Origin: a virus
Taxonomy: Duplodnaviria > Heunggongvirae > Uroviricota > Caudoviricetes
Strand: one strand, 5' to 3'
DNA length: 37,934 bases
IMG/VR virus record: IMGVR_UViG_2534682329_000010
Positions 36,001 through 37,934 of the stretch are shown piece by piece. Position numbers: made by a program. How positions within the stretch are numbered: position 1 is the first letter of the stretch; each line of letters begins with the position of its first letter.

Positions 36001-37934
36001 GCCCCGCCCGCTTTGCCTTACGATATTCGTCATAAACTTTGGGGTCGTACTGAAGTTCCCCGCCGGATGCCTCTTGCAGGCGGATCGCGCGACCTTCAGG
36101 AACCAATTCCCCCCATTGAGAAACAGCAGATGGATCAACACCAGCAGCTTTCGCTACTTTGGCTTTCGTCCCATAAAAATTAATTACGTCTGATTTAAAC
36201 ATCACCCCTCCAAAGTTGAGTTTTCTCAATAGTAATAACTAAAGGAATCTCAAGTCAAGGGTTATTAAGATATCTAAATATGAACGAGAAAACTTTAGGT
36301 CAACGAATTAGAGAAAGACGCAAACAGGTTGGTTTAAGTCAAAACGATTTAAGCAAAGCTGCTGGCGTATCTGGCTCATCAATTTCACTATGGGAAAGCG
36401 ACCATACAGCCCCGCGCGGGCAAAATTTGCATCGCCTGGCTGAGGTATTGCAATGTTCACCAACTTGGATACTATTTGGTGACGAGGATAAAACACCAGA
36501 TCCACCAGTTGCACTCAACAGCGCCTTAGACTTATCGGAAGATGAGTTGGAGATATTGCGATTGTATCGCGCACTTCCAAAATCAGAGCAGCAAGCACAA
36601 ATCAGCGAACTCCGTGCCCGCGTTGAGAATTTTAATCGCCTGTTCACCGAGCTACTAGAAGCTCGCAAACGTAACAAACATCAATAACCCCCTTCACAAA
36701 TTTTAAAGCCTTACATTTCAATGTATTGGCTTTATTTTGCATTAAATATTGAGTTTTCTCATTAAAAATTCTTGACCAATTTTAATGAGGAAACTAAATT
36801 ATCATCCATCAAGACACCGCACGGTGTTCTCAGCAAACAGTTCCGCTACCCCGGCGTTAAGGGGAAATGAGGTCAACATGGATACTATCGATCTTGGCAA
36901 CAACGAATCTCTGGTATGTGGCGTGTTTCCCAATCAGGACGGCACATTCACCGCCATGACGTATACCAAAAGCAAAACGTTTAAAACCGAAGCTGGCGCA
37001 CGTCGCTGGTTGGAAAGAAACTAAGGTGAGTGATATGGATTTCGACACAATCATGAAAAAGGCTTACGAAGAATACTTCGAAGGCCTTGCCGAAGGCGAA
37101 GAAGCTCTCAGCTTCAGTGAGTTTAAACAGGCGCTTTCCAGTTCGGCAAAATCTAACGGCTAACGGGGTTAAAGATGGAATTTAAAGATTTACCACTATC
37201 AATCCAGGAGATTGCAGCACAGACACTCCGTCAACGCCTGAACGAACTTGCATTGGAATCGGTAACGAAAAAAGACACTGATAATATAGCTCGTAATGTG
37301 CGCGATGCGTTTACCGGATTGTACTCTGTTTCGGTAACAAACAACCAGGATACTGAAGAAGCTGCAAAGCGGATTGCCTCGGCGATGGGTTTTTATGTCG
37401 AGGAAAAGTATTCAAAAAAAGAATTCTGGAAAATGGCCAAACGCATCGCAGAGCGAGGTGAAATGCTCTCTGCATCAGGGGATTCATTTTATAACGAAAA
37501 AACTGATAACTCCTGTTTGCGTGATTTGCTCTCGCTGCTTGATAAGTTCGGAATAATAATGACCGGCACTGCTCTGGCTGATTTCACTTATAGCGCAATT
37601 TGTCATAATGGAGAACCATGTCCGCCAGAATTAATAATCACCCCCGGCAATCATCCGAGGGTAAAAATACGAGCGATTCAGGAGCACTGGTTTAATCCAG
37701 TTCCACAAGACGAGGACGCGGTAAAACCTCTATAGGTCCCGTATAGCCTGACGCTCTTTTGACATTGAGAATTTTATTTAACTTGTCAGCCTGATACTGA
37801 CTTGGTTTCACAAATATCCCATCAAGTTTTGATATATGGAATACACCGTGTTTCGGGCAATCAAAAATATAATAACCATTCTTCTCTGAAAAATCAGACG
37901 AAGAATTACAGGCTGGGCATAGTTTTGTTGGCAT

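Follow-up and report, generated by a model that had tools for sequence, protein, structure and literature searches.

The dicBF operon of the Qin prophage in Escherichia coli K-12 (ydfA-ydfB-ydfC-dicF-dicB-ydfD, beside the regulator genes dicC and dicA) has attracted study since the 1980s on account of DicF and DicB. The operon is silenced by DicA; its induction in K-12 is lethal, a toxicity due to DicF and DicB; operons of this kind typically sit in defective prophages, and the function of the first three genes is not known (PMC5069750). DicB shields cells from phages that use ManYZ (PMC6832061). The leader genes are without an assigned function, and the ydfC slot has so far counted as fixed. 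Here we describe the end of a 37,934-nucleotide (nt) stretch of Caudoviricetes DNA (IMG/VR record IMGVR_UViG_2534682329_000010; 'the window' below, meaning the stretch at its full length), in which the ydfC slot holds a cassette of two convergent, overlapping genes. The dicBF operon itself was already known; what is new is that it has a polymorphic slot for convergent gene pairs. We read the two products, tentatively, as a pair of cognate antagonists.

Judging from the sequence, there is little doubt that a Qin-type dicBF early-left operon of an E. coli lambdoid prophage begins here and that the region covers its promoter-proximal part. Both the layout and the DNA match those of K-12, and it is this match that identifies the region as the head of such an operon. 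As in K-12, divergent DicC- and DicA-type regulator genes lie upstream of ydfA, the promoter is operator-controlled, and ydfA and ydfB are near-identical to their K-12 namesakes; the DicF leader, DicF, dicB and ydfD follow in the closest relatives. At the DNA level, ydfA-ydfB are 95% identical to K-12, and the segment that runs from the DicF leader to the end of ydfD is 84% identical; homology ends at the 3' end of ydfB and restarts 58 nt beyond the start of the antisense gene. The gene order here—operator-flanked promoter, ydfA, ydfB, then the cassette in place of ydfC—is made up of the following elements:

35975-36229, minus strand: Cro/DicC-like gene (Pfam P22_Cro; 69% identity to K-12 DicC, E 4e-40)
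36280-36687, plus strand: DicA-like repressor gene, 135 amino acids (aa) (Pfam HTH_3; 56% identity to K-12 DicA, E 3e-51)
36749-36799, plus strand: pL-like (PdicB-like) promoter with two operator-like sites (promoter scan, motif comparison)
36878-37024, plus strand: ydfA, 48 aa (Pfam PF07151, DUF1391, E 2.1e-29; 96% identical to K-12 YdfA)
37035-37163, plus strand: ydfB, 42 aa (PHROG 2061, E 1.3e-28; 41/42 residues identical to K-12 YdfB)
37175-37735, plus strand: forward cassette gene, 186 aa (N-module, linker and C-terminal domain, CTD)
37692-37934, minus strand: antisense partner gene, 80 aa, convergent with the 186-aa gene and overlapping its last 44 nt (PHROG 10133, E 6e-27)
37324-37927, both strands: exchangeable cassette (forward codons ~51-186 and antisense codons ~3-80)

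Unlike K-12, the operon has the 186-aa and antisense zinc-ribbon genes where ydfC would be, and neither is YdfC-like; the idea that the 186-aa gene is ydfC was dropped after a direct comparison found no similarity to YdfC. The repressor also represents a different immunity type, and the part of the operon from DicF on falls outside the window.

A first-pass annotation had seen at 36878-37934 four open reading frames (ORFs) downstream of an OL/pL-like promoter—two small proteins, a 186-aa protein with no recognisable motif and a convergent Cys/His ORF at the window edge—and had proposed them as exclusion or defence cargo. All four ORFs are real genes, for homologues exist for every one and purifying selection acts on the 186-aa and antisense genes. 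The two small proteins do not qualify as cargo, being YdfA and YdfB, which by homology are conserved leader genes of dicBF operons.

The Tha/Ith system of Staphylococcus aureus prophages offers one parallel: there, an overlapping antisense gene encodes an inhibitor of a defence protein, opposing transcription makes expression of the two genes mutually exclusive across the lysogeny/lysis switch, and the operon is noncontiguous (PMC11087260). Here too, a small overlapping antisense gene lies within a prophage operon beside the immunity region. It is located between ydfB and DicF/dicB, its overlap with the forward gene amounts to 44 nt, and the overlapping arrangement recurs in three related loci (L004, L005 and L009). 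The two systems have no sequence or fold relationship, however, and no HEPN domain is present here. The strand roles are mirrored as well: in our case it is the large gene that belongs to the early operon of the lytic programme, and expression in lysogeny would fall to the small antisense gene. The Tha and Ith products are antagonists; here, antagonism and an antisense promoter are predictions.

Lambdoid phages supply another parallel. For the pL operons of lambda and P22, Ranade and Poteete are said to have described sieB and esc, along with the sas RNA, in 1993. SieB is an exclusion function active in lysogens, paired with a phage factor that spares the phage itself, and antisense RNA is involved. 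The setting is again the early-left operon of a lambdoid phage, and the logic would match the polarity that we propose below. But Esc is an internal, in-frame product of sieB rather than the product of a convergent gene, and SieB, unlike the soluble proteins encoded here, belongs to the membrane; nor do these proteins match the Pfam SieB family.

Pore-forming colicins have their immunity gene on the opposite strand. Effector/immunity loci in general (colicin/immunity, CdiA-CT/CdiI, Rhs-CT/RhsI) resemble this one in joining a conserved N-terminal part to abruptly divergent types of CTD, each with a small adjacent partner. They differ in that here there is no secretion, delivery or recognisable toxin domain, the proteins are only 110-212 aa long, the genes lie inside a phage early operon, and the start signals of the partner are part of the conserved flank. 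A type II toxin-antitoxin module was considered and rejected, because the genes are convergent with overlapping 3' ends and have no Pfam, NCBIfam or PDB match. The best matches of the four proteins in PADLOC-DB 2.0 are partial (E 0.014-0.044) and none is significant; none of the four matches a SieB or Rex family in Pfam or PHROG. Neither the N-module family nor the paired cassettes turned up in the literature that could be searched.

The exchangeable cassette

When the window is aligned with loci that carry another type of cassette, homology stops at 37317-37335 (13118-13136 in the related locus L001), at forward codon ~48-54, and resumes at 37923-37933 (L001 13724-13734), within the first four antisense codons. 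These borders are common to different types. In a survey of ~90 related loci (80 from IMG/VR plus further loci, the whole being partly clonal), the slot was found to hold at least five unrelated cassette types. CTD and antisense ORF are particular to each type, but all five share the same two-gene, tail-to-tail layout:

Type A (this window): forward 186 or 179 aa; antisense 80-aa zinc ribbon
Type B: forward 212 aa (PHROG 2151); antisense 69 aa (PHROG 4274)
Type C: forward 112 or 119 aa; antisense 64 aa (PHROG 4987)
Type D: forward 129 aa; antisense ~99 aa
Type E: forward 201 aa; antisense 63 aa (PHROG 2605)

Mixed pairs, with the forward gene of one type and the partner of another, do not occur among these loci. 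Types A and B have dissimilar CTDs and dissimilar partners, and the types are therefore not divergent alleles of one another. The proteins of types B-E belong to no Pfam, NCBIfam or PADLOC family, match only PHROGs of unknown function, and contain no toxin or trafficking domain.

The conserved left flank of the slot encodes an N-module of ~50 aa, and the conserved right flank holds the start codon and ribosome binding site of the antisense gene; the antisense ORFs of types A-D all begin in the same flank sequence, ATGGAGGATAAAATG. Recombination in both flanks would exchange both coding bodies at once. In K-12, the slot is occupied by ydfC alone, without an antisense gene, and dicF and dicB are retained. 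Type A cassette DNA is found in 25 of 5426 complete E. coli genomes, as near-identical copies that come mostly from porcine enterotoxigenic E. coli; ydfA/ydfB, by contrast, account for matches in the majority of the 3899 E. coli genomes hit. The cassette, next to the immunity region, is variable accessory cargo and bears the hallmarks of a conflict module; the proposal of defence cargo is partly supported.

Between the antisense start and DicF, the right flank has a hairpin that comes in two forms, with the loop inverted (TGACAG or CTGTCA), independent of cassette type; in L001 it reads ACACG-TGACAG-CGTGT at 13772-13793, ~40-60 nt past the end of the window, and its counterpart in L006 is at 4885-4906.

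The two genes and their pairing

The forward protein has two parts:

37175-37324, plus strand: N-module, aa 1-~50 (PHROGs 2151, 1363, 9419, 6937 and 33007 match from residue 1)
37409-37732, plus strand: CTD, aa ~79-186 (free-standing homologue P0125, in L009)

Full-length homologues of the 186-aa protein form ~10 clusters, from E. coli and Salmonella. More than 100 further clusters align to residues 1 to ~50-75 only, the rest of each protein being one of many different C-termini, of many lengths, or an early stop. P0125 (119 aa), in turn, aligns only with residues 79-183 (35% identity, E 3e-9). Because the N-module is joined to such varied C-termini, and because the CTD has a solitary homologue, we regard the 186-aa protein as a fusion of the N-module with a separable CTD. 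One protein, P0151 (204 aa), has the N-module twice in tandem, which confirms the N-module as an independent folding unit.

That the 186-aa protein lacks a recognisable motif was borne out: it belongs to no Pfam, NCBIfam or PADLOC family, and neither the whole protein, the CTD nor the N-module alone has a relative in PDB by sequence or profile. Structure prediction, from which the first-pass annotation had hoped to learn more, revealed no function; the AlphaFold2 model has a mean predicted local distance difference test score (pLDDT) of 51, is usable only at an N-terminal helical hairpin (~75), and found no match in PDB with Foldseek. One RefSeq record (NZ_OZ547217.1, L104 2352-2912) labels the protein 'RNA-binding protein', where all others have it as hypothetical; none of the family models run supports the label and we have not used it. 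The forward CTDs are small, acidic and hydrophilic, with isoelectric points (pI) of 4.7-6.8, and they display no recognisable toxin fold or catalytic motif.

The convergent Cys/His ORF at the window edge is the 80-aa antisense gene, running from 37934 to 37692. Its product consists of a zinc ribbon, CPAC...CPKH (residues 3-35), and a helix (46-61), and is basic (pI 8.5-8.8). C6, C9, C26 and H29 are invariant across four homologues, and the frame and length of the ORF are kept at 89% (L004), 69% (L005) and 44% (L009, 91 aa) identity. The AlphaFold2 model is fair (pLDDT 72); Foldseek found no match to it below E 0.03 in PDB or BFVD, and sequence and profile searches found none in PDB.

The window ends exactly at the ATG of this ORF. 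Its ribosome binding site (GGAGG N5 ATG) lies just past the end and can be seen in L001 and other relatives that share the last 1.7 kb. A second in-frame ATG, four codons 5' of the first-mentioned start (MEDK-M...; L001 13733-13747), is also conserved in the flank. The GGAGG serves the downstream ATG, and the PHROG profiles begin there too, but one variant (P0153) has ATA at that codon and would need the upstream ATG. The conserved upstream ATG and the ATA variant together leave the true start of the antisense proteins ambiguous.

Both genes are under purifying selection. The ratio of nonsynonymous to synonymous substitution (dN/dS, or omega) of the 186-aa gene is 0.11-0.23 against a DNA copy 84% identical; that of the antisense gene, outside the overlap, is 0.12-0.31, and 0.12-0.21 in pairs that include the window copy. 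Within the 44-nt overlap, the antisense frame is constrained and the forward frame is not. In type B, too, both genes are under purifying selection, and omega is 0.1-0.25 in types A and B. It is very improbable, then, that the genes are functionless remnants of a decaying prophage. dicBF operons do typically sit in defective prophages, and several loci contain frameshifts or stop codons, but dN/dS values of 0.1-0.25 for both genes, invariant metal ligands, and lengths kept over 30-55% protein divergence speak for function.

The type A genes keep company wherever they are found. In L004 and L005, whose forward proteins are 79% and 69% identical to that of the window, an 80-aa zinc-ribbon gene occupies the same convergent, overlapping position. 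In L009, a DicA-like repressor gene is followed directly by the solitary CTD homologue. This locus has no ydfA, ydfB or N-module and has unrelated flanks, and still the homologue is overlapped tail to tail by a 91-aa zinc-ribbon homologue. The pair of CTD and zinc ribbon has thus been kept in four lineages, down to 35% and 44% identity, respectively. Neither gene was ever found alone in searches of 5.8 G proteins, of 1.8 G proteins or of IMG/VR, and a scan of GTDB species representatives with profiles of both found no relatives. When the genes decay, they do so in more than one way: in one lineage a frameshift in the forward gene goes with a partner cut short at codon 62, and in several type B, C and D loci the partner has nonsense or start-region mutations and the forward gene is intact.

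Could all this be mere linkage, in which the antisense gene is simply a moron and the forward gene an accessory early gene of the usual sort, with no relationship at the protein level? We think it unlikely. Lambdoid genomes are mosaics with sharp module borders, it is true; recombination cannot split overlapping genes, and the flanks here are recombination-prone. Type B loci have a second antisense gene (DUF1883) embedded further down the operon, some N-module proteins have no partner, and some loci have lost theirs. Linkage of this kind does not sit easily, though, with an identical tail-to-tail layout in five different cassettes, with a type A pair that persists at 35-44% identity among unrelated flanks, or with the failure of either type A gene to turn up alone. 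If linkage is all there is, a useful correction remains: the region comprises the start of an operon already known and, behind it, two ORFan accessory genes.

Proposed antagonism across the lysogeny/lysis switch

The reading that we prefer, tentatively and without holding it to be probable, is that the two products are cognate antagonists, made on either side of the switch between lysogeny and lysis, the small protein belonging to the lysogen side. It seems to us the best reading because the pairing is strict, several unrelated types occupy the one slot, the forward domains are acidic, and the zinc-ribbon partner is basic. With the DicA-like repressor bound, the forward gene would be silent and only the antisense gene could be made; the pL-like promoter cannot serve the latter, which must therefore have a promoter of its own and so be expressible when the operon is off. 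When the operon fires—upon induction, or upon infection by a phage of the same type—transcription would run head-on through the antisense gene, and the acidic forward protein would then be made and bind its basic partner. The small antisense protein would be the agent in the lysogen, performing exclusion or some other conversion function, and the forward CTD would be a type-specific neutraliser that spares the phage itself. We favor this polarity because partners have been inactivated repeatedly in the presence of an intact forward gene, which fits a dispensable lysogen function better than it does an essential antidote, and because the CTDs resemble small acidic inhibitors rather than toxins.

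The polarity might be the reverse, in which case the forward protein would be a lytic effector, toxic or for host takeover, and the antisense protein a constitutive antidote against leaky expression, as immunity proteins are to pore-forming colicins. We consider this rather unlikely. The architecture is that of polymorphic effector/immunity loci, with a conserved N-module, a variable CTD and a small, co-varying neighbor, and the pair is conserved even without the N-module. In one lineage both genes have decayed together. The operon also holds other toxic early functions, with DicF, DicB and YdfD as neighbors, and its induction in K-12 is lethal (PMC5069750). That toxicity, however, is explained by dicF and dicB—indirect evidence only, because K-12 has ydfC in the slot—and the forward CTDs, small, acidic and hydrophilic, bear no toxin signature. 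The loci of types B, C and D in which the partner is mutated and the forward gene intact are likewise hard to square with an antidote.

Antisense control is common in lambdoid switches, of which oop, sar and sas are examples. Conceivably, the device acts at the level of RNA, convergent antisense transcription serving in lysogens to brake or insulate read-through into dicF-dicB, and the peptides being secondary. The antisense unit does separate the promoter from DicF/dicB, and overlap of its transcript with the forward mRNA is unavoidable. Tha/Ith, moreover, acts partly through transcriptional interference (PMC11087260). We judge this quite improbable, nevertheless: both frames, zinc ligands included, are under purifying selection, K-12 and other operons keep dicF and dicB with no antisense gene at this place, and no antisense promoter was identified.

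Several considerations weigh against the antagonistic-pair reading itself. A consensus scan of the 175 nt of conserved flank found no convincing sigma-70 promoter for the antisense gene, and for that reason its expression in lysogens is assumed. (The only promoter-like consensus matches, rejected as evidence, either cover the start codon, as in three lineages, or sit 470 nt upstream, in the dicF-dicB interval.) Evidence for a terminator is a second weak point, the candidate being:

37638-37664, minus strand: terminator-like hairpin, weakly supported, 28 nt 3' of the antisense stop and within the forward coding sequence (consensus scan)

This hairpin is stronger on the minus strand (-16 kcal/mol) than on the plus strand (-9), with a z of -2.8; it is conserved in L005 and absent in L009. 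It overlaps conserved forward codons, so that its conservation is ambiguous, and as the terminator of the antisense gene it is only suggestive. Overlapping genes are co-inherited in any event, and co-variation alone is no proof of a functional pair; the loci surveyed are partly clonal. N-module proteins without an antisense partner occur, in Shiga toxin (Stx) phages for example. The pair has no homology to any defence, anti-defence or toxin family, and no structural match. Finally, our arguments concerning which partner is the agent are weak ones.

The first-pass annotation likened the genes to rexAB and sieB. The comparison does not hold, for there is no similarity to sieB, rex or the PADLOC defence models, and the forward genes are unable to act as rexAB does, expressed in the lysogen along with cI, because the prophage repressor keeps their operon off. 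This leaves the antisense gene as the sole one that a lysogen could express. Of the broader suggestion that this is exclusion or defence cargo, one part stands: the cassette is variable cargo beside the immunity region, present in 25 of 5426 genomes and replaced by other cassettes elsewhere. Against the rest speak the lack of homology to known defence and the repression of the forward genes. Exclusion activity as such is documented for the dicBF operon, but it resides in DicB, beyond the window (PMC6832061).

Extending the antagonistic-pair reading to the whole family gives a more doubtful proposition, namely that the slot between ydfB and the DicF leader in lambdoid prophages of E. coli and Salmonella is a polymorphic locus of interchangeable cognate pairs. 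These would be defence/self-immunity or effector/antidote modules, switched between lysogeny and lysis, and would define type-specific exclusion groups. Were this so, a new family of small antagonist pairs would join the known prophage conflict systems, and the Tha/Ith style of design, with an antisense gene set in an operon, would extend in mirror image to enterobacterial lambdoid phages. Nature would also have provided five specificity variants for direct testing.

The operon head and its surroundings

The OL/pL-like promoter of the first-pass annotation is supported by sequence, with copies of the operator motif both around the promoter and between the cro and repressor genes. The promoter, TTGACC-17-TAAATT, occupies 36772-36800 (L001 12573-12601). 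It is flanked by the operator-like motif TTGAGTTTTCTCA, whose two arms (36748-36767 and 36780-36799) form a 20-nt inverted repeat, 90% complementary; the motif recurs as a palindrome at 36216-36236, in the cro/repressor intergenic region. Upstream of the promoter, the repressor gene ends in a terminator:

36704-36738, plus strand: good intrinsic terminator closing the DicA-like repressor gene (-12.3 kcal/mol hairpin ahead of UUUAUUUUG; z against shuffles, -4.25)

Genomes identical to the window here carry the ydfA annotation. ydfB, annotated by PGAP in L001, has an alternative in-frame GTG start at 37026 that would yield 45 aa. The GC content of the region is without anomaly, at 0.43-0.45 throughout.

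What lies beyond the window end is inferred from relatives. Over its last 5.2 kb (32739-37934) the window matches a prophage of E. coli NY1601 at 99.8% identity, and over the final 1.7 kb the match is perfect. Following the sequence past the end in this way, as the first-pass annotation had advised, brings into view the antisense ribosome binding site and then, in NY1601, DicF, 337 nt beyond the end (Rfam, 74 bits). After DicF come dicB, a DUF1482/YdfD gene, a recE-like exonuclease gene, a DUF4224 gene, an integrase gene and a tRNA-Ser gene; the closest relatives as a group have DicF, dicB, ydfD, the recE-like exonuclease gene, xis and int downstream of the cassette. dicB is also found in the related loci L003, L004, L005 and L104. 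Not all related operons yield DicF: no match reaches the Rfam gathering score in L004, L005, L006, L072 and L096, several of which retain dicB. Type B loci such as L006 have an insert of ~500 nt at the expected DicF site, comprising an antisense DUF1883 gene (5376-5639) and a 73-aa forward ORF, and this may be a second variable slot. Between DicF and dicB, at L001 14140-14275, there is a sub-threshold match to the small RNA STnc100 (39 bits, gathering score 47; E 2e-6).

The window as a whole is a mosaic; of its last 25 kb, 63% at most is covered by any one complete E. coli genome. ARAGORN found no tRNA genes in the window; NY1601 has tRNA-Gly and tRNA-Thr genes near its Q gene. Elsewhere in the window, all on the minus strand, are:

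35440-35991, minus strand: gene in the cII position, encoding a 183-aa protein of the YdaT family (Pfam YdaT_toxin, E 9e-6), as in Rac/Qin-type prophages
27490-27574, minus strand: C4 antisense RNA (Rfam gathering level, 76 bits)
27602-27678, minus strand: isrK RNA (Rfam gathering level, 74 bits)
30506-30681, minus strand: sok RNA (Rfam gathering level, 121 bits), adjacent in a related genome to a hokD-type toxin gene

Two related loci carry further genes of note. L007 has a PaaA2-ParE toxin-antitoxin pair between the repressor gene and ydfA (2956-3437), and UMNF18 (L003 1-844) has a SIR2-family gene beside its replication genes.

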